Positions 11,427-54,997 are shown, counted from the first letter of the whole stretch. The stretch is DNA of 63,947 nt, filler included, from Psammoneis japonica (GCA_008632985.1; 6 parts of 6 records of this genome joined end to end with filler, not necessarily neighbours in it); one strand, 5' to 3'. Made by a program: numbers and translations. The notes: generated by a model not told the origin, from the letters alone.

Positions 11427-11526
11427 NNNNNNNNNNNNNNNNNNNNNNNNNNNNNNNNNNNNNNNNNNNNTTAATTAATTAANNNNNNNNNNNNNNNNNN
11501 NNNNNNNNNNNNNNNNNNNNNNNNNN
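11427..11526. other. Artificial contig linker N44-TTAATTAATTAA-N44 (also 22635-22734, 33808-33907, 44849-44948, 55836-55935)
   Basis: The same 100-bp cassette with stops in all six frames occurs five times. Confidence 0.97.
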
Positions 11527-11851
11527 TTGCACCCTTTGTCATTTTGCGCCCTTGGCCATTTTGTGCCCTTTGTGATTTTGCACCCTTTGTGATTTTTCCC
11601 TTTGTGATTTTGACCCTTTGCGCCATTTTTTGTTTTGTTGCCCTTTGCTGCATTTTGCGCCTTTGTGATTTTGCCCCCTTGGCCATTTTGCCGCCCCTTT
11701 GGCCATTTTGCCCCTTTGTGATTTTGCACCCTTGCGCCATTTTGCCCCTTTGTGATTTTGACCCTTTGTTTTTGCCTTTTTGATTTTGCCCTTTGTGATT
11801 TTGCACCCTTGGCCATTTTGTGCCCTTTGTGATTTTTTTGGCCTTTGCGAT
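11527..11851. repeat. ~17-bp minisatellite (ccctttgYgattttgca), left part
   Basis: Tandem degenerate units; the array resumes at 21594. Confidence 0.9.
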
Positions 11852-12040
11852 TGAACAAACGCTGCCATGAGACAGCCAAGAATTGGGTGTGAGACAAGAC
11901 AGAGTGTTGGACAGCATCAGCAGGTTCCACAGTTGTGAGATGTCACGCTGCTGGGACCACCAAATGAGTGACAGTGGACCAGCCATTGCCAATGGTGTGT
12001 GAATTGCCAGCATTCGTGACAGTGTGCCAGCATTTGTTCA
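11852..12040 (-). repeat. Copia 3' LTR
   Basis: Aligns with 21410-21593; TG...CA ends with terminal inverted repeat. Confidence 0.88.
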
Positions 12041-15000
12041 GCCCCCTTGAACTGATGCTGGCTCCACTTGGGCCAGATTGACAGACAAGTGCAACCTGAT
12101 GCTGCCCTGCTCCAGGGCATCATTTTCATTTGGGGATGAGCAAAGCCGCACATGCGTGGCAAACCCATTCTGTTTGTCCCCTTTTGGGGCTTGCAACAGG
12201 ACATGGCTTGCAATTTCCCGGAGCTTCAGCCCAGGCAACAAACTTGGTTGGCACATCCGCCAAATTCGTGCACCCGTCTTTCCAAGCAATGCATGCTGTT
12301 CCAGTGGCTTGTGCCTCACGAGTCCTGTGACAGGCAACCACACTGTGCTTCTTCTTCAAAGCAGACTCCAGCTCAGCTGAGTTCTTGAAGACAGCTTCAT
12401 TGTCGCAGACGACATCAGTGGCTCCATCCATGGGGATTCCCAGCATCCGAAGCTTGCAACGCAAGGCTTCAATTTGCTCCACTGCAGTCTTCATTGCCAT
12501 GAACTCTGACCCAAATGTGGATGATTCCATGGCATTCTGCCGCTCAGAGCAACACAAGATGGGAGCTCGTTGTTGAATGTCAGGATCCCAGTGTGGGGCC
12601 TGCACATCACACAACATCCGGCATGATCAGCGCCAACAAAGCAAGCAGCAGTCATGCTGTTCCCACGTGCTTCTGGCATGTTCGGCGGAATTGGCTCAGC
12701 TGCACCAGGACAATGTTCTCCCCAGTTGCACTTGGCAAAACGACTCTCGTCAAAGACCGGCTCAGCGTTGTCGAACACTGGCGTAGACTTGGAGTGAGCC
12801 TTCAAGCATGAAAAGACATGGAGCACCTCGCCCAGGTGTTGAACTCGTGGTGCTGCCAAGCAGGAGGACATGAGTGAGGAAGCGACAAAAGTGTCCACTC
12901 GCCTCAGCTCAACTGTCCATCGCAGCACACCAACAAGGCCTTGGCAGCAGCTGGCCATTTTGACACTCAACTCAGGTGAGCCATCCAGCTCAGGCCCATG
13001 CCCTGAGCTCAAGGGCGTCAATGCCTTTGTCGGAAGGCCCGCCAGTTTTCTTGAGCTCCAACTCAACATCGGTCAATGCCCTTTTGACACAAAGGTCAGA
13101 GGACATGGCCCAGCGCGTCTTGCCATCCAAGTCAGACAACTGGCACTTTCTGATCTGGGCACCCAAGCACTCTTCCAGCTCGCAGACACTTCCATCCTTG
13201 AGCCCGTGCCTGGAGCTCACATGATCCATGACCTTCTGAGGTTCATGGGAGATGCACAACAAGTCATCCATGCACACAAGCACATGTTCCCAGTGCTTGA
13301 AGCCACCTGGCTTGACCGCAGCTCACATCCAGACATCCGGGTCAGCCTTGCAAGACTTGAACCCAGCGTCATGCAAGGTGGCTGCCATGTGTTCCCTGAA
13401 TCTCGCACCTGAAGACTTGAGACCACACAAGGCTCAGACAACAATTGCCGGCCTTCCTTTGTTGTGCTTCCCAAATTCCAGGCCAGCAGCAGTGCAACAC
13501 TTCTCCTCAGTGTGTGCGTTCAAGTGGGCACTCTGANNNNNNNNNNNNNNNNNNNNNNNNNNNNNNNNNNNNNNNNNNNNNNNNNNNNNNNNNNNNNNNN
13601 NNNNNNNNNNNNNNNNNNNNNNNNNNNNNNNNNNNNNNNNNNNNNNNNNNNNNNNNNNNNNNNNNNNNNNNNNNNNNNNNNNNNNNNNNNNNNNNNNNNN
13701 NNNNNNNNNNNNNNNNNNNNNNNNNNNNNNNNNNNNNNNNNNNNNNNNNNNNNNNNNNNNNNNNNNNNNNNNNNNNNNNNNNNNNNNNNNNNNNNNNNNN
13801 NNNNNNNNNNNNNNNNNNNNNNNNNNNNNNNNNNNNNNNNNNNNNNNNNNNNNNNNNNNNNNNNNNNNNNNNNNNNNNNNNNNNNNNNNNNNNNNNNNNN
13901 NNNNNNNNNNNNNNNNNNNNNNNNNNNNNNNNNNNNNNNNNNNNNNNNNNNNNNNNNNNNNNNNNNNNNNNNNNNNNNNNNNNNNNNNNNNNNNNNNNNN
14001 NNNNNNNNNNNNNNNNNNNNNNNNNNNNNNNNNNNNNNNNNNNNNNNNNNNNNNNNNNNNNNNNNNNNNNNNNNNNNNNNNNNNNNNNNNNNNNNNNNNN
14101 NNNNNNNNNNNNNNNNNNNNNNNNNNNNNNNNNNNNNNNNNNNGTCATCAGCCGTTGCGGCACGGGCATCACATCGGTGATCGACTGTCTCCTTCATGAT
14201 CTGGCAGTCATTCCCTTCAGAGTCCATCTGAGTGAACAGTTCTTTGCAATTGCGTCAGTGGCACAGGAACCAGTGGATCCATCAGGAAACTCCACATCGT
14301 GTGTCCTCAAGTCTGGGACAGGGTTGTCATTCCCAGCGCCAATGGGAACCCCGTCATCATCTCATTTGCATGCAATGACCCCAGCATGAGTCAGCTTGCC
14401 TCCACGTGGTGACATGACTTGAGCTGTGAGGTGTTCATCTGGCCCCTCCGGGGTGTGCTCATCAGCTTCTGGTTTGGAAGCATCGGGTTCCATGGGTTCG
14501 ACAGCATTGCCCCACTCGTCCATGAAGTCATCAGGGAGTTCAGGGAAGTCAGCATTGGCGCCCTGTTCCGGGATGTCAAGTCATTCGATCAAGGCCTGAT
14601 TGACTGACGCAAGATCCGTTTTGATCGCCGGAGTTTTAAGGTCATCCTCCGGCATGGCCCACACATCTTTCCGAATGATGGGTCTGCCTGATTCGGGAAG
14701 GATGACAAATGCCATGTTGTCAGCGCAGTTGCAGTTGTCGGCTGCTCCAAGCCAACGGCCGATGCACTTCTTCTTGTGTGGGAACTCTGCCACAGGCATG
14801 TGACAGCAGACAGGTTGACACCAATCAAAGAGAGAGAGCGACAAAATGTCAGGTGTTGAACCTGTCACCTCTTCTTCTGGGACTCGTCCTCCCATGTCCG
14901 ATGTGCTGGCAGTCGCAATCATGCGTTGGACATCACATGTCCATTTGGCACTGCGGGACCAAAGTCGCCTGTGAGCGCCAGTCCGGCGCAGAGTCACTCG

Positions 15001-15504
15001 GACTCTCTTCTTCAACTCATGGATGGATGCCTCGGCCAGGTTCTGCCAGGGGCTGTGCGGGGTGGACACCTCCTGGTGCATCCTGCATTCCTTGCAAATC
15101 TCCTTGGTCTGGCCTTCTGCCATTTCCGGTGTGCCATCCAACACAAGGACTTGCGGAATGCCAACATCATGCACAAATGACATGATGGCATTCGGGTGCA
15201 TTGACCTGACCTTGGAAACATCTGGTCAGAGCAGAAGTGTCTCTTGACAGCAGGGAACTCAAGCCACAGAGCTTTCTTCCAGACTTTCCGCTCGGATGGC
15301 ACGCAGACATTGTGGACCCCTGCCTGGGTCGTCACTCTGAGGGTGTTCTTGGTGGCTGTCAAACCAATGTTCCACCTCTTGGAGAGCATCTCGGGTGTGA
15401 TGGTTGATGCACGACTTGAGGTCAACAGTGCATGCACCCATTTCCGCTTGGCACAATCCAGGTGGATGTCTGGGTTGCACCGGTCGTGCAGCCCGTCTCC
15501 CTCA

Positions 15505-15900
15505 GACGGGTTCCAGCCCCAGGTGGGACTTTTTGTGACATTGGGCCCGCAGAATTCTGCGTGCGAGCTCTGCAGCAAAATCATTGGGCAATGAACATGT
15601 GAATGATCGCCAACAGAAAAAGAGGCAATTTTGCAAACGCATCTCCTCCTCCACACTTGAAGCACGTGCTTTGCAGCATGCCCGGGTGTGTTCTTCAGAC
15701 ATTGAAGAACACACCCAGAGTGTTTTTGTCAACATGAATGCAGACAACAGAAAGCCTTTGGCTTCGCAAAACAGGCGGTGTGGAACAATTTTTTGTGACA
15801 GAGCACGCAGAAATGTGCGCGTGAAACATGCGACGGATGACAAAAAACAAACATGTCACAGCTCAGCAGTGCAAGGTCCCACCCAGAGCTGGAGCGCGTC
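15505..15900 (+). mobile_element. MITE copy 1 (~396 bp) inside the Copia
   Basis: TIR GACGGGTTCCAG..AGGTGGGAC / GTCCCACC..CTGGAGCGCGTC; 4-bp TSD ctca/ctca. Confidence 0.88.
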
Positions 15901-16131
15901 CTCAATGTTGTTGTGGGAGATGCGCTCGCCTGAGCAACCAGGTGGCGATGCAGAGAATCGTCGTCATCAGTGTCCACAATGGCGTTCTTGTCATGATGAG
16001 ATGTTTGGTGTGAATGAATTGAAGCGACACACCTGGTCGCGTTCATCATCATTGCCTGTCCGTCAGACTTCACTGACCCTTGGCGCTCACTGGCACATGC
16101 GTGCGCTTCCTCCTTTTGCGCCATGGCATCA

Positions 16132-18850
16132 AAACCAAAATTCTGCATTTAAAGTGCTGCTGCACTTCCACCCTGCAACTCCGGCAACAAGCCAACCCAC
16201 ACCCCCAGCACACCAACAGCGTGGCAGGAATGCATTGCGATTGGCCAAGATGGGTGTCACCAACAAATGATGATGCCCGCCAGGAACAGTTGGGAGTGGT
16301 GTCACAGACAGCAACAGCAAATTAAAAACAAAACCAAAATTCTGTGTTTGAAGTGCTGCTGCGCTTCCACCCTGCAACTCCGGCAACAAGCTGACCCACA
16401 CCCCCAGCACACATGTGTGCGGCAGGAATGCATTGCGACCAGCCAAGATGGGCGTCACCAACAAATGATGATGCCCGCCGGGAACAGCTGGGAGCAGTGT
16501 CGCAGACAGCAACGGCAAATTGATTTGGCACCTTCAAAGCACTTGAAACCACAGCAATGGAGTGGCTCTTTGCTTCTGACTGGATCTGATCATTCCACTG
16601 AAGCAAGCCATGTTGGAACACTCCAAAGTGAGAAGGGATCTGAAACAGAGCAAACACCGTAAATTTCACAAACAGGGACCAAAACATCACCAGCCACCGA
16701 GTTGGTCTCAAATCAAACCTCTGGCAGCAGCAACAACAAAAAGGAGTTCATGACATGGAGCAAAGAACTCAAAAAGGCACTGAGGAAAGGGGGAGTCACT
16801 GGAGCTTGGCAGGCATGGATGGAGAGCCGTCGGATGATCGGACAACAGGCCATCAGAAAATGTTTTCATGACATGCAGAACTTGTGCTGAGTCTCGCGCA
16901 GGAACTTGGCAGGAAGCATCGGCAAAAAGGCAAAAAGCCAAATCAAGCCGAGTTGATCTCAAATTCACACTTCTGGAAGCAGCAAAGATGGAAGGGTGTT
17001 CGCTGCATGAAGCAGAGAACTTGAAAGGACAGCAGGCAGAGGGGGGGGGTCTTTGGAGCTTGGCAGGTGTGGATGGAGAGCAGTCGAGTGATTGGGAGAT
17101 CGGCCGTTTGAAAACATTTCCTTGACACGCAGAACTTGCACTGAAACTTGTGTGGACTTGTCGGCACGCGGAAGATTGGCCAATGCACACTGAATTGGTC
17201 TCTTCTTCAAACTTCTGAAAGGAACAACGACAGGAAGATGTTCACCACACAACACAGGAAACTTGAACAGACAACAGAGAGAAGGGGGGTCGTTGATGCT
17301 TGAGAGGCATGGAGAGAGAGCAATCGGCAGTTTGACGAGTCGTCCGTCTGAAATGACTTGCAGAACACGCAGAATTTGCGCTGAGACCTGTGTGGAAACT
17401 TTGCACGCGAGAACAAAAAACACCGAGAAAAACGTCGAGCGATTGAGCCAAGAGAGCTGGGTGCAATTCGTTCTCCACTGCACAAGATTGTCAATGATCA
17501 CAGAACAATGGCATGTCGACAAAGGAACACGTCTGAACAGGCAGGTGAGAGCCGTCATTGCACCATCAGAAAAAGGCAACATCTGCGCCAGAGCTTGCGC
17601 AGAAAACCACGCAGAGGGCATGGCCATGAAACAAAGGCAGAATTGTGACAGCAACAGCAAATTGATTTGGCACCTTCAAAGCACTTGAAACCACAGCAAT
17701 GGAATGGCTCTTTGCTTCTGGCTGGATCTGATCATTCCACTGAAGCAAGCCGTGCTGGAACATTCCAAAGTGAGAAGGGATCTGAAACAGAGCAAACACC
17801 GCAAATTTCACAAACAGGGACCAAAACATCACCAACCACTGAGTTGGTCTCAAAGTCAAACTTCTGGTGGCAGCAACAACAAAAAGGAGTTCACCACACA
17901 GAGCAAAGAACTTAAAAAGGCACTGAGGAAAGGGGGGGTCATTGGAGCTTGGCAGGTGCAGATGGAGAGCCGTCGGATGATCGGAAAACAGGCCGTCAGA
18001 AAATGTTTTCATGACACGCAGAACTTGTGCTGAGTCTTGCACAGGAACTTGGCAGGAAGCATTGGCAACAGGCAAAGATCCAAATCAAGCCAAGTTGATC
18101 TCGAATTCACACTTCTGGAAGCAGCAAAGATGGAAGGGTGTTCGCTGCACAAAGCAGAGAACTTAAAAGGACAGCAGGCAGAGGGGGGGTCTTTGGAGCT
18201 TGGCAGGTGTGGACAGAGAGCAGTTGAGAGATTGGGAGATCGGCCATTTGAAAATGTTTCCTTGACGCGCAGAACTTGTGCTGAAACTTGTGTGGACTTG
18301 TCGGCACGTGGAAGGTTGGCCAACGCACACTGAGCTGGTCTCTTCTTCAAACTTCTGAAAGGAACAATGACAGGAAGATGTTCGCCACATGACACAGGAA
18401 ACTTGAATGGACAACAGAGAGAAGGGGGGTCGTTGACACTTGAGAGGCATGGAGAGAGAGCAATCGGCAGTTTGACGAGTCGTTCATCTGAAATGACTTG
18501 CAGAACACACAGAATTTGCGCTGAAACCTGTGTGGAAACTTTGCAAGTGAGAACAAAAAATGTCAAAAAGAACGTCAAGCAATTGAGCCAAGAGAGCTGG
18601 ACGCAATTCGTTTTCCACTGCATGAGATTGTCGCTGATCATGGAACAATGGCATGTCGACAAAGGAGCGTGTGCGGAAAAACACGCAGAGGGTGCAGCCG
18701 TGAAACAAAGGCAGAATTGTGGCCACAAGGAATGCATGGAATTGCACGAGAATCGATCATTGCCATCAATGCAAAGGCAGCCAATTGGTTGTCCTCGTGT
18801 CATGACTTCTTTTTTCTTTTTGTGGGAGCCGCGTTTTGGTTTGCATTCAG
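16132..18850 (-). mobile_element. 2.7-kb non-autonomous non-LTR retroelement built of tandem units, with a LINE-like 3' end
   Basis: 15-bp TSD tgcgccatggcatca at 16117-16131 and 18851-18865; removing it restores the Copia frame (..WEPSADAMAQKEEA..); its 3' ~130 nt match the LINE 3' end at 34524-34655; ~1.14-kb internal duplication. Confidence 0.85.
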
Positions 18851-21409
18851 TGCGCCATGGCATCAGCAGAAGGCTCCCATCTCAGGGGTGATGTGAGTTC
18901 CAGCTGGGGAAGGTTCTCCAGATCCTCCTTTGTCGGCTTGTGTGAGTCAAAAACTGAAGCAACACCTCGCATGTGCAACGGCACCCTGATCTTCGAGTCA
19001 GGGAAAGCAACAGAGTGTGCGCTGTTAGAATCAAACTGGCGAGGGGTGTCATGGGCAGTCAGTCCATTTGCTTGCAGTTGGTTGGGGCACAGCAGAGTGT
19101 CAGTCATCCTGTCCCCAAAACACATGGCCTCATGGACTGACAGCAGGTGTGGTTGTCCATCAGTTGGATCAACCCACACAGCAGCAGCCGTGCAAATGGG
19201 AATGTTTTTCATTGGCGCGCGCTCTTCGGAGCAAGGGTGCACCATGACAGTGCGGTCGATGTCAGAGTGCATTGCAAAATTGGACCCAACAGCACACGCA
19301 TCAGCACGCGAGTCCAAGTCATTGGTTGCTTCACCATCTGAATGTCCAGCAGATGACAAAGAGACACACACATCCTTTGAGAATTGCCCAGACAAATGCA
19401 CAGTGCCAGCAGGTTCAGCAACAGTCGGCTCTGTGCCTTTTGGTGCTGGCGCAGCTGTTCATGCCTCTTTCTGAGGTTTCTTGTGGGCGCTGCGTCTGAG
19501 CTGCTTGCCTGCATTGGCAGCAGGTTTGCCCGACTCTTCGGAGTCCTTTTGTTCATCAGCAGGTTTGGGTTCAGGCTCGGCAACAGCCACCTTTTTAACA
19601 GCGCAAGTTTTGACATCAACCGACTCAGCCTCTGAAGATGCAGCTGCTGCTTTGCATTTCTTCTTGGCTTTTTTGGCCTCACAGAGCTTCTTGACTTGCT
19701 CTTGCTCAGGACCATCAAGAGCACTCCACTCTTCAATGGGACAGTGGCCTGCCCTGATCCTGGGCTTGTCCTTTTTTGGTTGGTGCTTGCATCCAGGGTT
19801 TCTGCACCAGTTGTTGCGGCGTTGGACGGGTGCGATTCCGCAAGCATCAGCGTTGCGGTTCTCAGCATTTTCTGCCAGAGTCTTCACACGCTGCTGGCAT
19901 GCTTCGAAATCCACTGGCTTTGTTGGGTCTCCATCCACTGCACTCTTGCCAGTCTCCAACCCAGGGTCGGAGACACCCTTGAGAAAGTCAGAGACCTTCT
20001 TGGTCTCGGCTGCCGGCTCATCAAGCTTGGACAAGTCGTTGCGAGCTTTCTGATGGCATTGAGCATGCTGGTTGAAAGTAAAACAACCCCATCCGGTGCA
20101 CTTTGCGGCAGCAATCTGTGCACAGGCACAGTTTTTTTGGGTGGTGGCAGCAGCCGATCCTTCCGCCTGCCTCTTGAGTGCAAAGAAGGCAGTGCGACCA
20201 TTGTGGTTGTGATTGGAAGGTTTGACAAAAGCCCACCCGGGCCCCCCCTGTCACTGGCTTCTTCAAGAGATCACACAGGCATTGCCTGTCCTGTGTGTGC
20301 TGAGCTCCTGCAAGTCGAGTGGTGGCAATGAGGTCTTCGTCAATGGCAGAGCAGGTGGCAGCCAACATTTTGGCAGTGGCGTCTTCATGCTCCCCAGCCA
20401 GGCAGACAAGGGGTGTGCCGGCAATGGCGCTGTGGTGATGGCGTGGCTCGCTCTCCAGCAACTCTTGGAAGGCAGGCCAGCCGTGCAGATTCTTGAGTTC
20501 CACGGCCGTCTTGGCAGCTGACACATCGTCCGAGTCCGCTGACTTGAATTGTTCCAGTTCTGTGAGACGTGCCGTCCATGTCCCAATGACGTCGCCAGCA
20601 AAGAGAGCAGCAGTCGGCTGTTGTTTTCGGGCTCTGTGGCAGTCAATCCATGCGCGCAGTGCCTTGAACTTGCGATTCACCAGGTGTGGGAAGTGGACTT
20701 GAGGGTTGGCGGTGGCATCCACGCTTTTCACCATGCCCTCAGTCACAGCAGCAATCTCTGCCAAAGGGGCCTGTTCCAAGTCCTGAGCAGCAGCAAAACC
20801 TTGACCGGCTGTGCAGGTGTGCGTCTGCACATTGCATCCACAACGCGCAAGACAAGCCGCAAAGGCCACGGCAGCGGCCGCTGTGTGTCAGCAGTCACTT
20901 GCATTTCAACACATGAGCATCCACTTGTGTGAGTGGAGAAAAGTGAGAAAAGATTTGACGGTTTCTGCTTGGCAACCCCGTGAGCAGGTGGCGTCACTCC
21001 TGAGCAACAATTTCCAACAGACATGCACCCACATGTGCAGTGTGTCCAAACCATTTGACAGCGCACTTTGGTCAAACAAATGCGCACAGTCAATTGACAG
21101 ACCTCAGCACACAAATCATTGTGTTGTCTTCATCACAAATGTTTGCATGTCTTAGCCAACATGTTCCATCCACGTGATCAAACATTCCGTCCACTGACGT
21201 CATGTCCAACGGATCACAGCTCTGGTCTCCAAGAGCGTGTCGTTCACATCCATGAATGTTGGCATGTGCAAAAGACTCAGCGATTGCGCGAGCAACCATG
21301 GGACCAACATGGCTCTTGCCACAAAAATCAATCGATCGCAACATGCCGTTGCACTGTTTGCATGCCCGTTCCAGACGATGAACATCACAGCGCATTGGCT
21401 CTGACAAAG

Positions 21410-21593
21410 TGAACAAATGCCACCGTGACAGCCAAGAACTGGGCACAGGACAAGACAGAGTGTTGGACAGCATCAACAGGTTCTAGAGCTGTGAGATGCT
21501 GTGCTGCTGGGACCACCAAACAAGCAACAGTGGGCCAATCGCCAACAGCACATGAACTGCCCATGTTTGTGACAGCATGTCAGCATTTGTTCA
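21410..21593 (-). repeat. Copia 5' LTR
   Basis: Aligns with 11852-12040; followed on the minus strand by ttgtcagagcc, resembling a Met-i PBS (ggtatcagagcc). Confidence 0.85.
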
Positions 21594-21830
21594 TGATTTT
21601 GCACCCTTTGCGATTTTGCACCCTTTGTGATTTTGCACCCTTTGCCGCCACATTGCGCCCTTTGCGATTTTGCACCCTTTGCCGCCATTTTGTGCCCTTG
21701 GTCATTTTGTGCCCTTTGTGATTTTGTGCCCTTTGCGATTTTGCACCCTTTGTGATTTTGCACACTTTGCCGCCATTTTGCGCCCTTGGCCATTTTGTGC
21801 CCTTTGTGATTTTGTGCCCTTTGGTGCATT
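21594..21830. repeat. ~17-bp minisatellite, right part
   Basis: Same unit as 11527-11851. Confidence 0.9.
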
Positions 21831-22081
21831 TGGTGGAGGGTTTGGGCTTGGGTCATGAGGTGGCACGAAACGCTTCCGGTTGAATGACAGACCCCACCTG
21901 GTCGATGCCAAGTGGCCATGGTTGAAGAACAGACCATGCAAAAATGGATGCGCACCCGTGTCTGTTTCTCATCCACAGCCGAACTCAGGACATGCATTTG
22001 CCAAAGCGATCGATGCAATTTTGCTCCTGTGACAGACAGACCATGCAAAATGGGTGCGTGCCGCATCCAACTTGCATCCAC

Positions 22082-22420
22082 GACGTCCAGGTCCAGGTGG
22101 GACCTCGCACTGCTGAGCTGTGACATCGACAGTTTTTTGAATCTCGTCGTATGTCGCGCACGCAGAATTCTACGTGATTTTTTCACATTTTGTGTCATTT
22201 TGCGGTGCACTTGTTGAGCGATCCGTCCAAAAACTTTTGACATTTTTTGTTGCAGCGCGATTCTACAATGTCTTGAGAATCGCGTGGGGCAGGTGCATTT
22301 GCAAAAACGTCGAGTGGCAAGAGGCACAATTGTGCCACAAACTTGGCCGTTCATTTGATGTTGAAGATGAACACATCCATTGATTAAATTCTCGTGCTGC
22401 GGAGCTCGCACGCAGAATGA
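22082..22420 (-). mobile_element. Truncated MITE relative (another fragment at 22741-22850)
   Basis: Aligns with 23767-24110. Confidence 0.7.
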
Positions 22421-22851
22421 CAGGATTTGAACAGGATTTGGATGCGCGCGAAGCATCGCGTGCTGTTTAGTTTACCGCGCACAGTTTTGTGTGCTTCAGT
22501 TCCGCGCGTTCACGCGCGATGTAGTTTGCTTTCGAGCCAACAAGGCTCACAAGAACAATGACAGTACCCGATTGCACGATCACACGTCTTTCGGCTCCTG
22601 CAACGGTCTCTGAGCGGAGACTCATCTGCCATTTNNNNNNNNNNNNNNNNNNNNNNNNNNNNNNNNNNNNNNNNNNNNTTAATTAATTAANNNNNNNNNN
22701 NNNNNNNNNNNNNNNNNNNNNNNNNNNNNNNNNNATCATTGACGCGCTCCAGGTCTGGGTGGGACCTTGCACTGCTGAACTGTGACATGGACAGTTTTTT
22801 GAATCACATCGCATGTCGCGCACGCAGATTTCTACGTGATTTTTTTGATCG

Positions 22852-25800: not shown

Positions 25801-25915
25801 TGGTGAACATGATGGTGTCAAGGTCCTTCTGCTCTGTCAGGTCGATGATTTTGCACTTGCTTGTCCCTCCAAAAAGATTGCAAAAGAGATCTGCGACCAT
25901 GTTGGTGTCACAAAT
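22852..25915 (+). mobile_element. Internally deleted fragments of a second Ty1/Copia element
   Basis: Protease-like AQIDAGAWASC, GAG-pre-integrase LLWHQ*LGHP, RT STHSSCVE..GGDARDACAHSP and HDKCIH..LLLCQVDDFALAC. Confidence 0.8.
23767..24157 (-). mobile_element. MITE copy 2 (diverged interior, same TIRs)
   Basis: TIRs gatgcgctccag..ggtgggac / gtctcacc..ctggaacacgtc; 4-bp TSD catt/catt. Confidence 0.85.
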
Positions 25916-33807: not shown

Positions 33808-34523
33808 NNNNNNNNNNNNNNNNNNNNNNNNNNNNNNNNNNNNNNNNNNNNTTAATTAATTAANNNNNNNNNNNNNNNNNNNNNNNNNNNNNNNNNNNNN
33901 NNNNNNNGAATTGCTCAGGCTCACCCACACTCGAGCAGCGGGAGTCCATTTGCTCGAGTTGAATCCCAATGGTCGAACCGAGGTGCAATTTGTTGCCTGA
34001 TTTGAATCCAACTCTTCAAATGACATGCCGTCATTCTCTTTTTCTTCAGAAAGACGTTGCTTCTTCCTTGCTCATCATGCTTTGTTGCTGTTGAGTGCAT
34101 CTGGATCGGTGTCGGAAAATTCGGGCAGCATTTCGGCACGATCAAGTGGCGCCCTTCCAAATTTCGTCTCTTGACGGCTCCACTTCGCAGCCACACCTCT
34201 GCAGATTCATTGCCAGTTGCTGGTGGATGAAGGTTTTGATGGGGCTTTCCAACAGTGATGAGAAGAAACATGTGATGTGATCGTTTTCCGCCCTTCTTGA
34301 GGCTGAACAAGTGTCCCGTTTTGTGCAAATTCACTCTGTCAGCAACACAATGTTGTTCTCTTCCGTCAAATTTGAAACCCCGTTGATGCTGCCATGCTGC
34401 TTCTTCAACTCTCCACCCACAATTTGGACTCCCTCATCAATGACATTGAATTTTGCATGTTGCAGAGCTCTGCCCACAGGTCTGCTGGCATCCATTGATT
34501 CCGAGCGAGAGAATCCAGGAACA

Positions 34524-37500
34524 AAACAAAACCCAAAATCTAATTTTAAGTGCTGCTGCACTTCCACCCTGCAACTCCGGCAACAAGCTGACCCACACTC
34601 CCAGTGCACTGGGTGCGGCAGGAGCACACAACAATTGGCCAAGATCGGCATCACCCTCTGGTGATGCCGTGCCAAAGTGGCTTGCGATGGCACGCACAGC
34701 CAGACGCCGGGCCTCTCGAATGCTCGACTCAAACATTGGCTTTACCATGGCGAGCCAGTTTTGGAGTCTGTGGGTGGAATGGGTGAGATGTTCATCTGCC
34801 GAAGCAAACAACTCTGCTCAATCCTGGGCCAAGTGCTCATCTGCCCTCAAGCACATCTCTTTAACCTCCGCCTCTGTGTCCCGTCGTTGCGAAGACTTTC
34901 GTGTCTCTGAGTTGTGTCCGTGCACTGCATCATTGTGGGAGTCCCACAATTCCCACCATTGTGACCACACACAACCACCAACAGTTGCCGCCCAGTCCAA
35001 TCTTTTGTCTTTGTCGGATGGAGAGCAACAAAAGCCGGAAGACTCCAAGTGCGACGTTTGTGCCTCATTCCACAGACAGGAGAAACGCCCACTGAAAATG
35101 TGGCGCCAACCAATGTTGTCTTGAGATTGAAACAGCTCTGTGACGCTGTGATGGACTTGGGTAGAATGGAGCAATTCCTCATTGAACCAACCCTCCAAGG
35201 CATGCAACAACAGGTCTCGTGTGGACGGGGAAGTGTGCATGTCGTCACATTTCTTCCGCAATCCTTGGAGGAACGTGCGCCGCCACGATGCATCATGGGC
35301 GCAACGCAGAATGTGATCCCTGTCTTCAAAGGGATGTTGGCAGTGCACACAACAGTCGGGGCATGTGGGATTGCATCTGTGGACAATCTTGTTCATTGGC
35401 AGCAGATCCTGAACCAATTTCACGGTGCTCACCTTTCGTCTTATGTTGCGAGACATCAGTTTGGAATGAACTTTCCAGTCGATGGATTCGCACACTGGGT
35501 CAGACCATCTGCACTTCTCCTGCATGTGTTGGATCAGAGCTGGGCTGGACACTTCGCAATGGAGAACTGATTTAAATTTCGAGTTCGCCGAAGCCGACTG
35601 GACATTCAGCAGTGCACAACAATGGGGCATTCGGGGAGCCATCAAGGTGTCTCCAGTGTGTTGACCCTGAAACAAACCTGCCAACCCGTTGGCTCTGACA
35701 CTCAACTTTGCTGGGAACGAGAGGGACTCGAACGGAGTGTTGTCATCCTGATGACTTTTAGTCCACTTCATGTCGACAACGTTGCTTTCAAGATGGCCAT
35801 TGCATTGGGCCTCCAAACTTGTCAGTGAAGCAAAGATCTCGTGGACAACGTCCCAATCCGGCGCCAATGTGTTGGCGACATGATTCCGACAATGAAAATC
35901 TTGTTGTCATTGTGAGTCATCGGCATCCAAAGGAAGCGGTGGGGGAGAATGAAAGTTGGCAACGTTGCGCACCAGAGAGGAGTTGTCACAATGGGCAACC
36001 ACACTGTGTGAAAAACAACAGCTGCAAAAGTCCATCACTCGAATGAGAAAGCGGAGAACTGACAAAAATCCGCGTGCTTCTGCACAATGCAAGGACGGTC
36101 GGAATCCAAAGACCGGTCCTGCACAATCCACCAGAATCACTCCGTCAACTGCTGGCGTCCAGCCAAAGGTGCCATTGAAATGCAACACAGACCCATCACT
36201 CCCCACTTCTGCACGGAAGCGCCCAAGGGACTCTGCCACTTCAAATGCCGATGCATGCATGTGAAGCGCACTGAACAGGGTTGACTCCCATGGCAACAAA
36301 GACCGCAGCCATTCGCAGAAGTCACCAAGGATGGGAGTTGTTGGAGGCATCTTCGCTGGGGATGCAGTGGATCTTGCTCGCCATCTGCCATCTAGAGTCG
36401 TGTCCACCATGACAGGTGATGCCAATGGGGATGGATCGGGAACTGTTTCCAACTGCTGAAGTGTTTCAGCACATGCGTCCTTGACTGGAAACACTTGACA
36501 ACCCGCATCAGAGCGGATGCACAAAAACTCTTCGGAGGGCTCGCAACAGGCCGGATGAAGCACACGCATCTTGGAGGCAGGAACGGTCCATTGACCTGAA
36601 GGGGTTTGGAGGATGGAGGCACCTTCGTTGCACAACAGAGCCATCGCCCGGCTCCATTGTTTCCAGGCGCGAGCAGACGGGTGTGCCTGTTCGACTGGAT
36701 TGAGTGACGATGTGCTGCTCACAAGGGAAGTTTGCCCTTTCAACTTGAGCTCATCTAAATGTCGACCATCGGGAAGAGTGACGTCTGAAACAGCAAGCAC
36801 CCGCAGGAACAGCCTGCAACAATTCACCCACCTGATCTCTTTCTCCGAGAAAAGATTAGAATCCAGCACCACATCCATGATGTGTTGATCATTCTCTCGT
36901 TGTGCAGGAAGGACGCCAGTGAAGTCCAGTTCGAAGTGAGCGTCCATGCGGGTGAGAAAGGATCTCATTGACACAAACCATTTGGACTCGGAGTGTGGGA
37001 GTTTTGTGTTGACATCTTGCAGAAAACTTGACCCTGTTCCGAGCTGGAGCTGCATGCATGCCACTGCAATGCGGGACAAAGCATGAGGTTGCCCAGTTCC
37101 GCGCCAGTGTCGAAGGAACTGCAAACATTGAGCGACACCCTGCTCCACGTCAAGAGAACAGAATCCTCCGCCTCCCAAGGTGTGCGGTCCGAACAAAACA
37201 TCCCGCTTGGTGTCACGGTTGTAGCCGCACTTGGCAAATGCAGTTCGCACAGCCTTGCGTTGAATCTCAAGCAATTCCTTTGGCTGAAAATGTGTGTTCG
37301 GAAGGACACACGTGGCAGAGGCCAGGTGGCACGCAAAGCAGTGAGTCCATGCCTCATGACGGTCCAATGGACACGACCGGAGAAACAGAGAAATGTCGTC
37401 ACTTTTTGTTTTTGGTGCTTTGCACTGAGTCTTCTAAGTGCCTGCAGGAGATTTGCAACGGCCCAGTGTCTCATGGGAGGAGCAAGCGGAAAGTTGGGTG

Positions 37501-40500
37501 CTGGATCTTTTGGTGGATCTGTTGGCGGAGTGGATTTCAATGTCAATCTCATCATTGTGTGCCCAAAGGCATGGCTCGCCATCAGCAGCAAAATGCCATT
37601 CAACAGCATGAAACAAGCACTTTGGAAGCTCCAGCTCATGCCCTGCCACGTCCAGGAGGTCGCACCACAGCTGATTGTCTTGCTGCACTTGAGGGACAAG
37701 GTCCAGCGCATCTGGTTGGGGATCAGCACAAAAGGCGTTCACTTGATTCGAAGTGTCGTCAACACACCCTCTGGCACACATCCGCATTGAAGCTGTCCGG
37801 TCGGGAGTTTCAAAGTGGGCCCCATGAGCTTGACTGTCAAACAGCCAAAATGAGCTGTTGCAAATTTGATTCCAGCAAAAGGGTGAATTTCCGCTGCCCT
37901 GACCAGTGCCGTAGACAGGGAGCTCATCTGAATGGGAGCAAGATGATGTTGAGAGGCCAAGAACTGTGTCTTTGGCCAGCATCTTGCATCATGTGAAGTG
38001 GTGTTTGCCGTCTGAGTTGCTGATTTTGGCGTGCCGTTGCTGCGGCTTTCGAGTGCTGTTAAAGCAGGAATGTTGCAATCGCAGCATGAGGTGCAATCTC
38101 CATCACTGTGCATCGCAGTTTTCCGGGATGCTCCGCCAATCTCAAGCACAAGTTCCTCAAGGTGCACCGGTGCATGAGCATTCAAAAAGGGATGCGTCCC
38201 ATAAATTCCTGGATTGTGCAGATGACGGTGTTCCATGTTCTGCGCCAAGGCTCTCCATTTCACACTGGATGTCAATTGGAAATCTGCCTCGTAGATGTGG
38301 ATGACTCGGAGACGATGCACCTTGTTGTTTCCCGGCTCTTTGAAAATCATGACGTTGACAACATCCTTCCACCTGTTGAACGAGCACCCCCAATGCAGAG
38401 CACAGTTTAACAAATTCAAGCGAATCCGAATCAGCCACTGTTGAACTTCATTTGAATGCTGACACTCAGACGTGAGATCACCTTCGGGGGTGGTGGAGCC
38501 CGAATGAGAATGAGCCACGTGCATTGCTTTCCAGTGTCCCAAATGAAGGCCCGAGAAAATAGAAGCAGATGCAGTTTCCTTCCATGCCTTGAGTTTCCCT
38601 TTAAGATCTGATTCAGACAGGAAGTCAGACACCAACACTGGTGAACGTCGTCGAAGATGTTGAACGAAGAGAGCAGCAGCACTGTTGAGAGAGGATGTGT
38701 CGCATTCTCCATCTAAGATCAAGTCAGCCACAACCGTGTCACCTTCGTGTCCGAGATCCACAGACAGGGGAGGAACTGCAGGAGGTGTGCCATGTGCCTG
38801 TCCAAAGTGTCGCTGATTCTGAGAACACAATGCTGCTGAAACGTCGTCTGGGGCATCGATCGTGATCCAATTTTTGCACTCTTTAGGATTGGCAGCCGGG
38901 TTGTGAGGGACCTGTGCGCCATTGACTCCTGTGTCATGTTTTGCCTTGCATGCATTGATCTTGCGAAACAACCGGGCGGTTTCTTCTGACTTCCGCATGT
39001 TCCGAATAATTCTTGCCGATTTGTGGGCGGCAGCTGCACCGTCCAGGTCCAATTTGGCAATCTTCTCTGCCAGTTCCCGCTCACGTTGCTCAATGCTCTC
39101 CTGATGGGTTCCAGTCCCAGGTGGGACTCCGTGTGACATTGGGCCCGTAGAATTCTACGTGCGAGCTCCGCAGTGAATTTACACTGCAATGAAAACACAA
39201 ATGATCGCCAACAGAAAAAGAGGCAATTTTACGAACGCATCTCCTCCTTCATGCTTGAAGTGCATCATCAATGGTTTGCCTGGGTGTGTTCTTCAGACAT
39301 CAAAGAATGTGCCCAGCGCATTTTTGTTCTCATGAATGTTGAAAATAGAAAGCCTTTGGCTTTGCAAAACAGGGAGCATGAAACAATTTCGTAGAATGTG
39401 ACACGCAGAAATGTGCGTGCGCGACACACGATGTGATCCAAAAAACTGTTGATGTCACAGTGCAGCAGTGCAAGGTCCCACCTAGAGCTGGAACGCATCT
39501 CCTTTGCAACTGCCTTGCATTCAGCCTGTGCCTTGCGAAAGGCAACCTGACATTCATGAAATGTCGTTGGAATGGAGAATGAGCCTGTCAGCTCTGAACG
39601 CACCTGCTGGATCTGGGTGACATGATCAAGACGGTTCCTCATCATGGAAAGAACACGAGCAAAGATGTGTGCTCTGTGATGGAGATCTGCCAACTTGACC
39701 GACCAGTCGGGTTCACGGTGGGATCGACACTTTTTCACGGATGCTGGGGAGAACTGAAGAAGATCTCGGTCCAAGCGTTCTGCCAGTTCGTGATTCGGAG
39801 CATCAGACTCGATCAGCTGGGTGGATCGTTCCAAGACAGAACGGCCATCAAGCATGGGTCCAATGGAGGTTAAATGCGAGGTGACCTGGGGTTTGGAGGA
39901 AGCCTGAATGTCGCGAAAGGAAGCTTTGGGTAGATCGACGGTTGGGTTCCCGAACAGTTCCATCGTGTCGAAGTCCACAAAATGTGCCCGATGATCTGAC
40001 GTGACACGGTGTCCAAATGCCTCACATCCGCCCAGGCGAGCCGCAGACAATGCTCCTGGAGATGCCAGAACACAGTCCAGTCTTTTGGAGCCTCTTGCAC
40101 ATGTGGAAAATTCGGAAACACCGAGGATTTGGAACAGGACGTCGGACAAATTGAAGCATTGGGCAAGTGCAGCTGGGGAGTCTGCATCCAAAGAGAAGTC
40201 CGCATTGAAGTCACCAAACAAGATCACTTCTCGGTCATTCTCCGCACGAAACTCTTGGAGCACACGCGAGAGGTCCGTGCAGAAGGCTTTGCGGGGGTCG
40301 ACAGAGTTGCGGCCCTGTTGGCGCAGCAAATGCAATTGTTGAGCATGGGCAGTTGTCTTCCCTGGTTGTTTTTGTTTTTTAGCGCAGACTCTGTGGCATG
40401 AGACAAACATGACTTGTCACCCATTGCAACCGTCAAACACCTGAACAGACCACCGGCCCAACGGATCAAACTCCTGGGAGCGGAGTCGGGCCGAGATGGA

Positions 40501-42970
40501 ATTGCACGAGACAATTGCTGTGCCACCCAGTTTGCATTGGGCAGAAAAGGGAGTGGAGCTGCAAGAGAATGTGCCTCTCCCGTGGAGGAGGGACTTCAAA
40601 ATCGCAGACCGACACACAGAGAGCACATCGAACTGGGTGGCATCCAGACACATTTCTGAAATTCCAACCACGTCCGCTTGAATTTCGTTGGCAATCTGAC
40701 AATGACCGTTGAGATCCCCGCCGCGCTTGTCAAACTTGCATCCATTGGCGTTGAAGGCATGGAGTCTAGTGTGGTGTGGCAGTTTCGACCGCAGTTCATG
40801 TCCGATTGGTTCACTTGTCTTGAGGTGGGAAAAATCGATCCTGCGATCTGCTGAAGGAGCACAGTGTCTGCCGTCTAGTGTGTGTTGCCATGCAGTCAAA
40901 GGTGCAGCTGAAGAAGACTCGCTGTTCATGGTTGGGCCTCGCTCCTCCGAGGAGAAGACTGGGGCTCACAGCGATGCAAAGGGTCTGAGGCAGTTTGAAA
41001 GGAGAACTTGCGACATCGAGAGGCACATCGAAAAATGTGTGCCAAAGTGTGGAACTCTTGAAGTGTTGAGGCAATGTCAGGAGGGCGCCCAATCTGTTGA
41101 GGGGGAGGAGGTGGCGAAGTCCAACCCCACGCTAAAAATCCTTCTCTTTGTCACGATGGTTGCCAGACCTCTCTGGTGTTTCGTTGTTGTCAGGACGTTT
41201 CCGTGCAATGCTCTGTGTGGGTTGGCTTGCCTGCAACAGTTGGACGATCTGATTCATCTGTGACTGCATCCCGGACAGTTGTTGCGAGCAGCAGTCCTGT
41301 GTGGCCATCATGTCATTCATGTGTTGAGTGGTGAACGTGTTGTTCAATGCCTCCATGTCCCGAGAATGTTGTGCACGCATCTCAGCGAGGGCTTTGTCAT
41401 GTTTCTCTTGCATTGGGTTCACAGTCTGTTGAACTTCTGCCAACTGTGCTGCAACAATTGACGAGCCAGCGGTCGACTGTGTTGCCTGTGCATGAGCATG
41501 CGAGGAAGACGTCGAGCTTCGACACCCGGGAATGCCACACAGGAAGGTGGGGAGAACTGGGAGCAATGAGTGAAAATGTGAGGAGGCACCGCCGAGCCTT
41601 GAGAGGTCCCTCGTCCAGGGTGACCTCGTCCTTCATGTCCACGTCTGGCACATGGTTTTGAAGCAGGTTGTGTCGAACCTGGAGCCTGATCATCAGTCAG
41701 TGGAGAAACATCCGAAAATGCAAGAGATTCAAGACTGCGAATGCCAGCCGACATGACAGATTTGCTGGTGTCGGATGATTCTTCGAGGACACCTGACACT
41801 TGAGGAGGTTCCGAAAACAGGGGAGATGGGCAAGATTCTTTCAAAATGGAAGGGATCAAATTCATGACGCATGATGAAACAGCTGCACGGATGGTTTCGA
41901 AGTTCCGACGGTCCACAAGAATGTTGTGTCGTCCATCAACAATCGTGGATTGAAACACATCCTTCACTCCAGTCAGCGCTTTAAGGTGATTTTCGAAACA
42001 AAACATCATGTCCGGGGTGGTGTTCAGCAGTGGTGCCACGAAGGCATCTTCATTGTGACGAGCTTGCGTCTTGATGGCGTTGTGAAATGCAAGAGGGGAG
42101 ACATGATGAGTTTTCGCCATCACGATGTGAGTCGGGAGTTTGTTCGAAGCGCAAAGCAAAGCCTTGCCCGCAGTGCGATGTTCTTCGCGTAAAACTTCAA
42201 TGGCAAAAGCAGCTGTTCGAAGCGGTGTGGCAAGTCCATCATTGTTGGCACGCATCGAAGCAGGCATCAACCGAAATTGTGGCATTTTAGTGTGGAAACT
42301 TCCGAGATCACTGATGAACAATTTGGCAGCTTCGTCGACCGGAGCATGTTCAGTGGATGCAGCAACATGACATGCCGGAGTGGCCGTGTCGATGTCAGAC
42401 TCGTTCCAGAAATGACGTTTCACACCCACATTGTTGGAGTCCAAAATGCTCTGGACATGTGGATGGGAGCGTGTTTCGCGCAGTGGAGTCTTTGTGAGAA
42501 TGCGGTGATGCAGGCGGTGAGTTGCCGGGCGTTTTTCGCCGCTGTGATTCGTCGTGATGACAAAGTGTTGTTCGTGTTGGAGAGAAGCAATCCATTCTGC
42601 CACGTTGAGATTCGTGACACGGTTGTTGTGGTTGTCAAGAATCTGAACATCCTTGTGGCAAGTGAACAGAATTTGCTGTGAGACTTGCAAATGGGTGGCA
42701 GCAAGAGTCATGGGCTTGCACGACAATTCTTTGCCACGAATTTCAAAACGGATGGTGATCTCTTCGAACTGATGCTCAGTCGGCTTGGAAGAAAGCTCAA
42801 TGGAAGACTGGTCAACAGTGACATCGTCTGCCACAATGGCGTCTTTGTTGTGAGTGGGGGCGCGGCTGCCGTCAGTGACGGAAGAAGACGCCATGGTGGT
42901 TGGCTGTTCTGTGGGGAACCTGGCATTAAAATTACGCAGGCAACATCAACGCGAGTGCGTGCAGAGTTGC
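34524..42970 (-). mobile_element. Full-length degenerate LINE (ORF1; ORF2 with APE, RT and RNase H), possibly Ambal-like
   Basis: 16-bp TSD agagaatccaggaaca at 34508-34523 and 42971-42986; ORF1 from 42894; APE GDFNA..RLDC..SDHR; RT LRVIHIYEAD, GTGQGSGNSP, GCVDDT; RNase H SDGS..AE..CDN..KSHQD. Confidence 0.9.
39103..39499 (+). mobile_element. MITE copy 3 inside LINE ORF2
   Basis: TIRs gatgggttccag / ctggaacgcatc; 4-bp TSD tcct/tcct; removing it restores VAKESIEQRER. Confidence 0.9.
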
Positions 42971-44948
42971 AGAGAATCCAGGAACAGTCGATGCATGTGT
43001 TTTGATGTGAACAATTTTCGGACGTCAGACATGATGGGTTTTTGCCCTTTGGCCCTCAGGGAGCTTTGCAGGTGGGTTGGTGAGGTGGGTGCAGGTTGCA
43101 GTGCAAAAAGCCAAAGATTTTCAAGAAGCTGTGAGCACCATCGTCAAGAGACCGGGCACGTGACAATTCTCGTGCTTTTTGTTTTCCCGCCAATGAAATG
43201 AACTTCAACTTGGTGACGTGTTGTGCCACTTGCGCAGAAATCTGCTCCAAATTTCAAAAAATCAATTCCAGCCATGCAGATTCCAGATTTCCATTCAGAA
43301 CAGGTGCAGATTTTCTCAAGCCAGTCTACGTAAAGGGACCTTGCAGCTGAGTCATTCGACCAAAATGTTTTTTTGCACATTCGTCGGCGCCACCCCACAA
43401 TCCTCGTGCTTTTTGCACGAGAAAAAAAAAAAAGACTTCAACCATGGTGAGCAAATCATTTGCGGCGGCGTTGATGTTGACAATTGAGCGGCAATTGCAT
43501 TGGGAGAGTCTTTTTAAACCCCATTGGAAGCATCTGGTGTGGTGATTGCCGCTCGAATTTTTCCTTTAGAAGCTTTTTTTTTTCCATCCACTGCTTCTCA
43601 TGCATTTTCGCTGTTGTGGCCTCCATCCCAGTCAAAGGTTGCAAGTGCCTCTGTGACTGAAGCACACAAAGGTCACATGCATTCATTGAATGATTCAATG
43701 GAAGTGGTGGTGTGGATGGAGTCACCTTCGGACATTCGCGCTTGTTGGTCAAGCACCGCTGTGCTTCGTGCTTTTGTGTGGCAAGAACATGCCAACGACA
43801 AGGGTGATTGCTTGGTTGCAACTTCATCAATGTTTTAATTTGAGAGACAAGCACACATGGAATGCATTGATCAACCCTGTGGGAAGGCCATCAGTGGGTG
43901 ATTGCCACTCAAACTGTCAAATGTCGCACTTTTGCTGACGCTTTTTTTGCTCTTCATCACAATTTCTGCAGCAGGTGCATCGACCGGCAACGCCATTTCT
44001 GAGGTTCAAGTCAGGGTTCTTTAGATGCAATCATGTCTGTTCACTCACATGCACACAGCAGATGACAGGGTGAGGTGTCTGGCTTTTTGGGGTGGTTCCA
44101 CAGAGCAGAGCAAACACAGATCCGCCTGGAAGTGGTTTGCCAGCCGCCGCCCAACTTGGCAACCAAATCAACTCAGACTGCAAGGAGATTCATCACATGT
44201 TGTCATCAAATCAACAGTGCCTTGCCACGCATTCTCCATTGCAATGATCATGGGAGGTTGGAATGAAAAGAAAAGCTTGGAAAGCACTTGAGATGCCGGA
44301 AGATGTTGGGCTGGAGGTCACAGCGCACCGGCCTGGTCCCGGCCTGGCCTGACCAAAGTGGCAGACGAAAGTCTCTAAGTCATGCAGTGTCTCTTGGAGA
44401 CCTGTCATCAATGCATTGCGTGTCCAAGCCAGTCATCCAAGGCTCTTGAGCTGGTTCATCTTAGAAAGTGATGCCAACCACTGGCGGGGAGAGGGTCCTC
44501 AGACATTTGATTTGCGCAGCAAAATTCTCGTCTGCGCTTCACTTCACATTCTTTTTGAAATGATGGGCAAGACAACTTCACCCTGACAATGAAGACATTG
44601 AAAACAATTAATTTTGTGAGCACAACAACAGAAAATGTCATAAAACTTGCCTCGAGTTCTCACCTCATGACAAATGCTCCGGCATCTGACTCGTGATCGG
44701 AGGCATCAAAAGCGGTGCTCTCGTCCAAATTTCACCGTGCTTCTTTTCAAAACAATTTAAAAACTTCACCTCGACCCAAATCCATTGGAGCAGGGAGATT
44801 CGGGCAACTGAAAATTCCATCGAGTTGCAACTTGGACAGGCAACATGTNNNNNNNNNNNNNNNNNNNNNNNNNNNNNNNNNNNNNNNNNNNNTTAATTAA
44901 TTAANNNNNNNNNNNNNNNNNNNNNNNNNNNNNNNNNNNNNNNNNNNN

Positions 44949-54591: not shown

Positions 54592-54855
54592 GGTATGACG
54601 TTAGTGTTCTGGAATATGGCAACAACGGTTCAAGAAAGGGCATTGCGTTGCCTTAGACTAGAGATGTACTCCGCTTTCTGTGGATAAGGACGAGCGGCCG
54701 ACTTGGACTCGTCATGGCAGAGGATACAGTGTAGTGATTGCTAAAAAGATAAGGCTAACCTTATTTTTTTCGAGCTAGCGTGCGAGGGAGCACGCACGAT
54801 GGGAAACCATACCGTCCGTCCTTCTCCTGCGTCATGACGTCATTGGACCAGGAAT

Positions 54856-54905: not shown

Positions 54906-54997
54906 GAGTCATAAGTAGAATTGTATATATTTTTTATACACTTGATTTTTTAGGTAAGGAACCCGGATCCAACATTTTTTTGAAAAAATGTTGGATC

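Follow-up and report, generated by a model that had tools for sequence, protein, structure and literature searches.

The 63,947-base window of Psammoneis japonica DNA analysed here (GCA_008632985.1) contains genes of ordinary composition together with transposons, other repeats and one decarboxylase pseudogene, from which the dinucleotide TpA has almost disappeared. Linkers of the form [N44]TTAATTAATTAA[N44] at 11427, 22635, 33808, 44849 and 55836 (spanning 11427-11526, 22635-22734, 33808-33907, 44849-44948 and 55836-55935) divide the window into pieces of 11426, 11108, 11073, 10941 and 10887 bases and a cut sixth piece, in falling order of length. The window is thus a set of unplaced scaffolds (S1 to S6) joined by size through linkers that place stops in all six frames, not a single locus, and readings of neighbourhood across the linkers are therefore invalid. 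An earlier note on this DNA had described a single 33-kb block at 11527-44848 between flanking genes; that stretch is exactly the unlinked scaffolds S2, S3 and S4, joined by N-linkers, and the genes sit on other scaffolds.

The observation at the heart of that note, the near-absence of TpA across 11527-44848, holds, with observed/expected (O/E) ratios of 0.03-0.12 against 0.62-0.65 in gene regions. S2 (11527-22634), the most stripped piece, retains 20 TAs (TpA O/E 0.033, CpG O/E 0.55), S3 (22735-33807) retains 85 (0.12 and 0.75) and S4 (33908-44848) 52 (0.078 and 0.68), while the individual gene-bearing stretches lie at a TpA O/E of 0.615-0.651 (496, 424 and 160 TAs). An O/E of 0.63, typical of this genome, would give S2 ~383 TAs (Poisson P ~1e-133). 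The signal reaches further than had been noticed, taking in the end of S5 (55002-55835; TpA O/E 0.054, CpG 0.38), the start of S6 (55936-58640; 9 TAs, TpA O/E 0.048, CpG 0.30) and, moderately, a high-copy repeat in S6 (62500-63947; 17 TAs, O/E 0.167). TG and CA O/E both rise to 1.4-1.8 in every stripped piece, and CpG O/E is 0.30-0.75 in stripped blocks compared with 0.87-0.95 in normal regions. With ~80-95% of TpA sites lost, the process is near saturation.

The affected blocks are discrete and lie beside DNA of normal composition. Two borders fall within scaffolds, at 54956-55001 in S5, where 29 TAs in 54517-55001 give way to 2 over the next 834 bp, and at 58642-58854 in S6, where the 9 TAs of the stripped block are followed by 16 in 58854-59187; the transitions are ~50-200 bp wide. 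Exactly where the S5 stripping starts, two perfect palindromes of ~45 nt surround a TA-rich spacer (54856-54997), a structure that could be a young insertion resembling a miniature inverted-repeat transposable element, or a boundary element. In S6, a (TG)n microsatellite of ~80 bases (58722-58803) separates the stripped block from the normal gene region.

Most of the stripped DNA consists of mobile or repetitive sequence. S2 carries degraded repeats, including a tandem duplication (16505-17526 and 17647-18666), and a Copia-like reverse transcriptase (RT) remnant around 13274 on the minus strand, where the catalytic motif reads CMDD; its RVT_2 lead comes from the atlas only, and a search of 94 S2 open reading frames (ORFs; 33 + 42, 19 of them re-scanned) for transposon domains returned no Pfam match. 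S3 holds unclassified repeats and a plus-strand Gypsy long terminal repeat (LTR) retrotransposon at 28490-33807, identified by Pfam matches to RVT_1, RNase H and integrase, with a putative 5' LTR from 28490 and a 3' LTR at 33704-33807 that is cut by the scaffold end. Its reading frame (28712-33589, ~1626 codons) has only two stops inside, and 43 TAs remain in the interior; the gag readings GNCQ, GGHG, GHGNCG and GYGNY are present at 29759-29861(+). In S4, beside other repeats, lies the minus-strand remnant of a long interspersed nuclear element (LINE)-like ORF2 (35910-40965), comprising an apurinic/apyrimidinic endonuclease (APE) part at 39271-40965, an RT-like part at 37742-39154 and a C-terminal part at 35910-37433. 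It is recognised by weak Exo_endo_phos matches and 124 homologues, Fragilaria crotonensis proteins among them, and the motif readings CVDD at 37766(-) and RLDC at 40083(-) are as previously reported. Thus, of the element types named in the earlier note, Gypsy and a LINE-like element stand, and the two Copia elements come down to the single RVT_2 lead.

The targets also include one host-type gene remnant. A diatom-type ornithine decarboxylase pseudogene lies at 56040-58021(+) within the stripped block of S6 (Orn_Arg_deC_N, Pfam E 3.2e-33), and its nearest cluster contains the Fistulifera solaris ornithine decarboxylase. It is damaged by in-frame stops and a frameshift near 57850, and Arg to Trp, Gln and stop changes occur too. 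An A-rich tract ~350 bases downstream of the pseudogene (58365-58400) could be a retrocopy tail; stripping continues for 240 bases further.

To polarise the changes, we aligned the Gypsy pol (31148-33589), the LINE-like ORF (37172-40467, minus strand) and the decarboxylase pseudogene with public relatives and used only those columns in which the relatives agree. Pooled over the three units, 8 of 47 conserved-Tyr columns retain Tyr, compared with 764 of 933 columns retained for other residues (Fisher p = 1.8e-20); in the 39 replaced columns the residue is Cys in 24, His in 12, Phe in 2 and Trp in 1. Gypsy pol, polarised with 40 of 120 listed homologues, keeps 373 of 444 conserved columns, and its 19 Tyr columns read Tyr in 4, Cys in 7 (TGT/TGC), His in 7 (CAT/CAC) and Phe in 1; overall it contains 0.61% Tyr, 4.3% Cys and 5.0% His, against medians of 3.55%, 1.85% and 2.98% in the 120 homologues. 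The LINE-like ORF keeps 250 of 342 columns and has Tyr 4, Cys 12, His 3, Trp 1 and Phe 1 at 21 Tyr columns, and the pseudogene keeps 149 of 194 with Cys 5, His 2 and Tyr 0 at seven. The control, a TpA-normal gamma-glutamyltranspeptidase gene of S1 (6602-8758, minus strand; Pfam E 4.9e-133), keeps its conserved Tyr in 9 of 9 columns. The changes ran from TpA to TpG or to CpA, the same event on either strand, which confirms the direction that had been proposed from motif readings.

The specificity of the process becomes apparent in columns where the consensus residue determines the ancestral base. At codon position 2, A>G has affected 25 of 47 TA columns, compared with 3 of 84 for AA (p = 5e-11), 0 of 97 for GA and 2 of 52 for CA; at codon position 1, T>C has affected 12 of 47 TA columns, compared with 1 of 57 for TT and 1 of 47 for TG. 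The remaining positions agree, with A>G at codon position 1 in 21 of 36 columns after T versus 6 of 151 after other bases, and T>C at codon position 2 in 5 of 6 before A versus 6 of 149 elsewhere. In non-TpA contexts A>G affects 5 of 233 columns and T>C 2 of 104. This TpA-only table excludes both the WA pattern (W being A or T) of Pol eta and context-free GC-biased conversion. Of the enzymes that had been suggested, a deaminase is therefore favoured by the test that the earlier note itself had set, TA-only context, and Pol eta is not. G>A has occurred in 9 of 56 columns after C and in none of the 102 that follow T; CpG decay is therefore a second process in the same blocks, separate from TpA loss, as had been suspected.

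Cys and His outcomes occur at 24:12 overall (p = 0.065) and 7:7 in Gypsy, and no runs of a single outcome are seen along the elements. Because Cys and His alternate along each element, both strands must have been hit, in many separate events. Copies of the same sequence provide further evidence. In a short element with five copies on three scaffolds (two near-identical, so effectively four independent copies), one column reads TG in 3, TA in 1 and CA in 1, and another CA in 3, TG in 1 and TA in 1. The putative Gypsy LTR pair has 7 differences, every one a transition: two sites contrast TA with CA, one TA with TG and one CA with CG, a doublet contrasts TG with CA, and one further site falls in none of these classes. 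The S2 tandem duplicates differ at 83 of 1015 aligned positions, 76 of them transitions, with 14 CA/TG doublets. Since copies differ by TA, TG or CA at the same site, the changes were made in place, after insertion or duplication, which bears out the earlier proposal that DNA itself is the substrate.

The TpA sites that survive are not a random sample. Compared with normal-region baselines, the 169 surviving TAs are over-represented in TTAA (3.2-5.1x) and CTAA (2.2-3.1x), ATAC stands at 0.09 and ATAT is absent where ~12 are expected. On a per-strand count, 43% of surviving TAs are followed by A, compared with 19-24% in the baselines, and 7% by T, compared with 26-29%, a skew with a chi-square p of ~1e-25 against either baseline. 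Mutability thus follows the order TAT > TAC > TAG > TAA, equivalently ATA > GTA > CTA > TTA. Taking starting O/E values of ~0.65-0.7 for TpA and 0.9-0.95 for CpG and comparing log losses, TpA would have been lost ~7x faster than CpG in S3, 5x in S2 and 2x in the S6 block. The consequence for reading frames is considerable: S2 contains TAA 9, TAG 6 and TGA 254 times (S1: 92, 124 and 205). With TAA and TAG erased, long spurious ORFs therefore arise on both strands of dead DNA, and the window has 26 stop-to-stop frames of at least 250 aa, many overlapping.

Sequencing reads reproduce the stripped DNA. Logan contigs built from the raw reads of run X1 (~34x) match 56234-56920 (687 nt) and 56893-58625 (1733 nt) with 0 differences, the second contig reaching to ~20 bases from the edge of the stripped block; the contigs come from one sample of one study. 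A further run, X2 (presumed DNA), covers 58741-63557 and none of 55936-58740, and a third, X3, gave no cover; missing cover was not used as evidence. For 55936-63947, no RNA run was listed as containing the sequence. Summed contig depth over the stripped decarboxylase block is 52-97, compared with 49-84 for the adjacent gene, in two versions of ~34 each. By this crude measure of copy number, which a more diverged paralogue would escape, the block looks single copy, and the claim that the process is targeted at repeats is not supported. The second version of the block (contigs at 80% likeness) is 86-88% identical at the same depth of ~34, with differences at 82/690, 162/1126 and 51/358 positions. 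The neighbouring S6 gene likewise exists in two versions (42/474 and 7/219), so that across 55936-63557 divergence amounts to 3-9% for the gene and 12-14% for the stripped block. Two versions at about equal depth point to two diverged haplotypes or homeologues, as might be expected of a diploid with high heterozygosity or of a hybrid genome, or else to a segmental duplication.

Related elements elsewhere have ordinary TpA contents. Among 79 related metagenome Gypsy loci, TpA O/E ranges from 0.42 to 1.08 (median 0.72) and none falls below 0.3; on this comparison, TpA poverty is not a trait of the Gypsy family. Only one of 120 Gypsy homologues, P0239, carries Cys or His at >=25% of its Tyr columns, that is at least a quarter (4/12). 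This protein, from another public assembly, has 1.5% Tyr, is rich in Cys and His and appears to bear a partial scar; it may derive from the same species or from a related one with the same process. At the same threshold, 3 of 105 LINE homologues qualify (3/9, 2/6 and 2/7), on tiny denominators. As a demonstration of the scar in other hosts, the Gypsy and LINE homologues were too weak a case to claim.

S1 carries sulfatase and gamma-glutamyltranspeptidase genes as long ORFs without introns (Pfam). The best relatives of the gamma-glutamyltranspeptidase are all from diatoms, at <=56% identity, which places the host among the diatoms or close to them. Direct repeats of ~460 nt (21-481 and 3524-3988; 77% identical, TpA ordinary) bracket the sulfatase gene, and upstream of it lies a TA-rich patch at 1001-1500, with more TAs than expected (68 in 500 bases) and with nested inverted repeats at 1084-1266. 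On S5, at least eight tandem copies of a 132-nt unit, 62-88% alike, occupy 46424-47648 inside long minus-strand ORFs; the stretch is G-rich (GC skew 0.41), gave no match in Pfam and is probably a repetitive protein gene. In S6, the high-copy repeat at 62500-63947 has a summed contig depth of 500-1800, against ~70 for neighbouring genes, and at 62946/62947 and 62988/62989 CA in the window corresponds to TG in other copies. Within it, the ~800 nt at 63144-63945 match their own reverse complement at 91% and contain no protein domain; they may represent an element of the foldback type or, at this scaffold end, an inverted duplication.

Taken together, our findings make it likely that a TpA-specific transition process has acted on the DNA of these diatom scaffolds. 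The explanation that comes nearest to it reverses the attacked base: a TET/JBP-type dioxygenase acting in silent chromatin would oxidise the T of TpA to 5-hydroxymethyluracil (5hmU) or 5-formyluracil (5fU), and the product would mispair with G and yield T>C. On double-stranded DNA the outcome is identical, the data here do not separate the two, and the flank preference reads equally well as RTA > YTA (R and Y being purine and pyrimidine). 5fU does mispair with G, and dinoflagellate 5hmU favours TpA; in diatoms, we know of no thymine-modifying enzyme or modified base, though no search for one was made. For the sole experimental precedent, discussed below, the authors likewise propose rather than prove adenosine deamination, and we regard thymine oxidation as improbable. 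A bias of repair or of a polymerase, whether Pol eta-type WA>WG synthesis, GC-biased gene conversion or repair of T:G mismatches toward G:C in heterochromatin, could draw on the CpG decay in the same blocks, which implies frequent T:G mismatches and their repair. The context table largely refutes this reading: Pol eta predicts that AA should behave as TA (3/84 against 25/47), gene conversion predicts change in all A/T contexts (GA 0/97, CA 2/52, TT 1/57, TG 1/47), and near-saturation with 764/933 other residues kept needs a very high site-specific rate. We consider it very improbable.

Editing of RNA or cDNA by ADAR- or APOBEC-like enzymes during retrotransposition, before integration, is less probable still, even though both Gypsy and the LINE-like element are retroelements, sharp borders would fit and the A-rich tract at 58365-58400 could be the tail of a retrocopy. 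The two strands are about equally affected in Gypsy (7:7); TA/TG/CA differences separate the LTRs, the tandem duplicates and the dispersed copies, which dates the changes to after integration; the stripped block runs past the A-rich tract, on to 58640; and a palindromic high-copy element without RT is also TpA-poor. An artefact, in the form of miscalled modified bases, assembly or polishing error, or a contaminant with TA-poor DNA, would have to be reconciled with raw-read contigs that match the block exactly at ~34x and with normal and stripped sequence on the same scaffold and even the same contig (56893-58625). A strand-wise miscall of a modified palindromic TA should give TG-only and CA-only versions, and TG and CA are mixed on one strand; the pseudogene moreover has stops, a frameshift and CpG decay, and the scaffold gaps and isolated Ns point to assembly from short or Sanger-type reads. 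The scaffolds are admittedly small, unplaced and repeat-rich, and the read check is not independent, but we judge an artefact highly improbable. Least probable of all is that the elements are naturally TA-poor or were selected to be so, for instance as a means of avoiding TA-specific nucleases, TA-targeting transposons or cryptic TATA promoters. Most genomes have fewer TpA steps than expected, and even the gene regions here stand at 0.62-0.65; nevertheless, none of the 79 related Gypsy loci lies below 0.3, Tyr has been replaced at conserved positions and in catalytic motifs, the scar is shared by a dead host gene and copies differ mutually at TA/TG/CA sites, so that this explanation is already refuted for the three polarised elements.

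Several points weigh against a TpA-specific process directed at DNA, or against its wider reach. All three runs that contain this DNA derive from a single sample of a single study, which may be the source of the assembly itself, and the read check is to that extent not independent. CA/TG doublets between copies, which make up 117 of the 6881 dinucleotides aligned in stripped pairs, can be produced by CpG decay as well and alone are not directional; we dropped them as proof of direction, a CpG ancestor giving the same pattern, unlike the three-state columns and the Tyr test, which are unambiguous. The LINE-like element, with Cys:His at 12:3, hints at strand bias, although a sense-strand excess of A>G is backed neither by Gypsy (7:7) nor by regional TG and CA values. 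Nothing here separates A from T as the attacked base. The scar is almost absent among public relatives, so the process is not general in diatoms, and any link to the rhizarian case described next could be convergence.

The closest parallel comes from the chlorarachniophyte Bigelowiella natans. A 2026 preprint (Mettrop et al., bioRxiv 10.64898/2026.01.13.699255) reports the same process, so the earlier view that no such system had been described no longer applies. In mutation-accumulation lines, 231 of 302 nuclear point mutations fell in two integrated viral regions, where the mutation rate was raised ~1000-fold; 230 of the 231 were A>G or T>C changes, without exception at TpA. Of the two regions, the larger is silent and present in a single copy, and 324 coding sequences, enriched in RT and endonuclease domains, are almost TpA-free. 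The two systems share changes that are A>G or T>C only, at TpA only, giving TpG or CpA on either strand, in discrete blocks (of foreign or silent DNA there, of presumably silent DNA here) where TpA is lost and CpA and TpG are gained; the single-copy target there may have a counterpart in our decarboxylase block, which looks single copy by crude contig depth. They differ in host, a rhizarian there and a stramenopile here, and in the kind of evidence, which is from mutation-accumulation lines there and historical here. The scar is deeper in the diatom (O/E 0.03-0.12, against a Rho of 0.45 given for the nucleocytoplasmic large DNA virus region of B. natans). Here the targets are retrotransposons, repeats and a host-gene pseudogene, with no viral insert seen in the window; CpG decay co-occurs, and a flank preference has been measured. 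We found no report of TpA-only hypermutation in diatoms in the open-access PubMed Central (PMC) and bioRxiv literature, and the diatom case is a new lineage for this recently described process.

Other systems are less similar. Fungal repeat-induced point mutation (RIP) resembles the diatom process in its dense transitions, its sharp-bordered segments on both strands, the inactivation of selfish DNA and the independent hits on copies. However, RIP changes C>T mostly at CpA and creates TpA and stops, whereas TpA, TAA and TAG are destroyed here; with the direction reversed, and TpA lost rather than raised, RIP was rejected. RIP also needs duplication, whereas most targets here are repeats and one, judged by contig depth, looks single copy. 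A diatom relative of RID, DNMT4, is described as being of unknown function (PMC9998398). CpG decay through 5-methylcytosine occurs in the same blocks (CpG O/E 0.30-0.75, Arg to Trp, Gln or stop) and also gives TG and CA, but it can neither remove TpA nor convert Tyr codons, and TpA loss is the stronger signal. APOBEC3 and ADAR likewise hypermutate selfish elements by deamination, acting on single-stranded cDNA or RNA and leaving strand-specific, pre-integration scars, whereas here both strands are changed in place.

Among known adenosine deaminases, ADAT2/ADAT3 and TadA would give A>I, read as G. The natural ADAT target, A34, follows a conserved U33 and so forms a U-A step; natural substrates lack U at position 35, whereas in the diatom DNA it is TAT that mutates most readily. 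The B. natans preprint (bioRxiv 10.64898/2026.01.13.699255) notes that ADAR has a preference for a 5' U, and DNA activity has been reported for an ADAT-type deaminase, amphioxus BjADAT2 (PMC10354150).

TpA-specific transitions have most probably accumulated in silent DNA, as represented by the Gypsy element, the LINE-like element, unclassified repeats and the decarboxylase pseudogene. The sharp borders and the co-occurring CpG decay together suggest that the blocks are methylated, silent units, and the agent is probably an enzyme directed at silenced or foreign chromatin. Adenine would be deaminated to hypoxanthine and read as G, as has been proposed for B. natans, where Mettrop et al. favour an ADAT2-like DNA adenosine deaminase (bioRxiv 10.64898/2026.01.13.699255). 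We tentatively put forward a DNA adenine deaminase as the agent, as the leading possibility, though one held with somewhat less than even confidence; no protein that would be a candidate enzyme lies in the 63,947-base window. It is tempting to speculate that diatoms and chlorarachniophytes share an inherited, chromatin-guided, copy-number-independent adenine-deaminase defence that rewrites TpA, TAT most readily, in any silenced DNA, be it a transposon, a viral insert or a dead host gene, and that outpaces methyl-CpG decay, although we consider this broader proposal rather unlikely.

A TpA-only A:T>G:C process has so far been known from one 2026 preprint and one rhizarian alga. A second, distant lineage with a much deeper scar indicates that the process is not a one-species oddity, and it provides a comparative filter for candidate enzymes, which should occur both in this diatom and in B. 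natans but not in diatoms with TpA-normal transposons. The diatom case adds the preference TAT > TAC > TAG > TAA, the co-decay of CpG, borders of 50-200 bp and a host pseudogene as target. It also carries a warning for annotation, because stripped DNA loses two of the three stop codons and yields long false ORFs. A natural A>G enzyme acting on double-stranded DNA at a defined dinucleotide would furthermore be of interest to base-editing research. Should the shared deaminase defence prove true, it would supply such a natural double-strand-DNA A-to-G editor, its removal of TAA and TAG would seed open frames that come to be annotated as orphan genes, and it would constitute a class of eukaryotic genome defence parallel to RIP.

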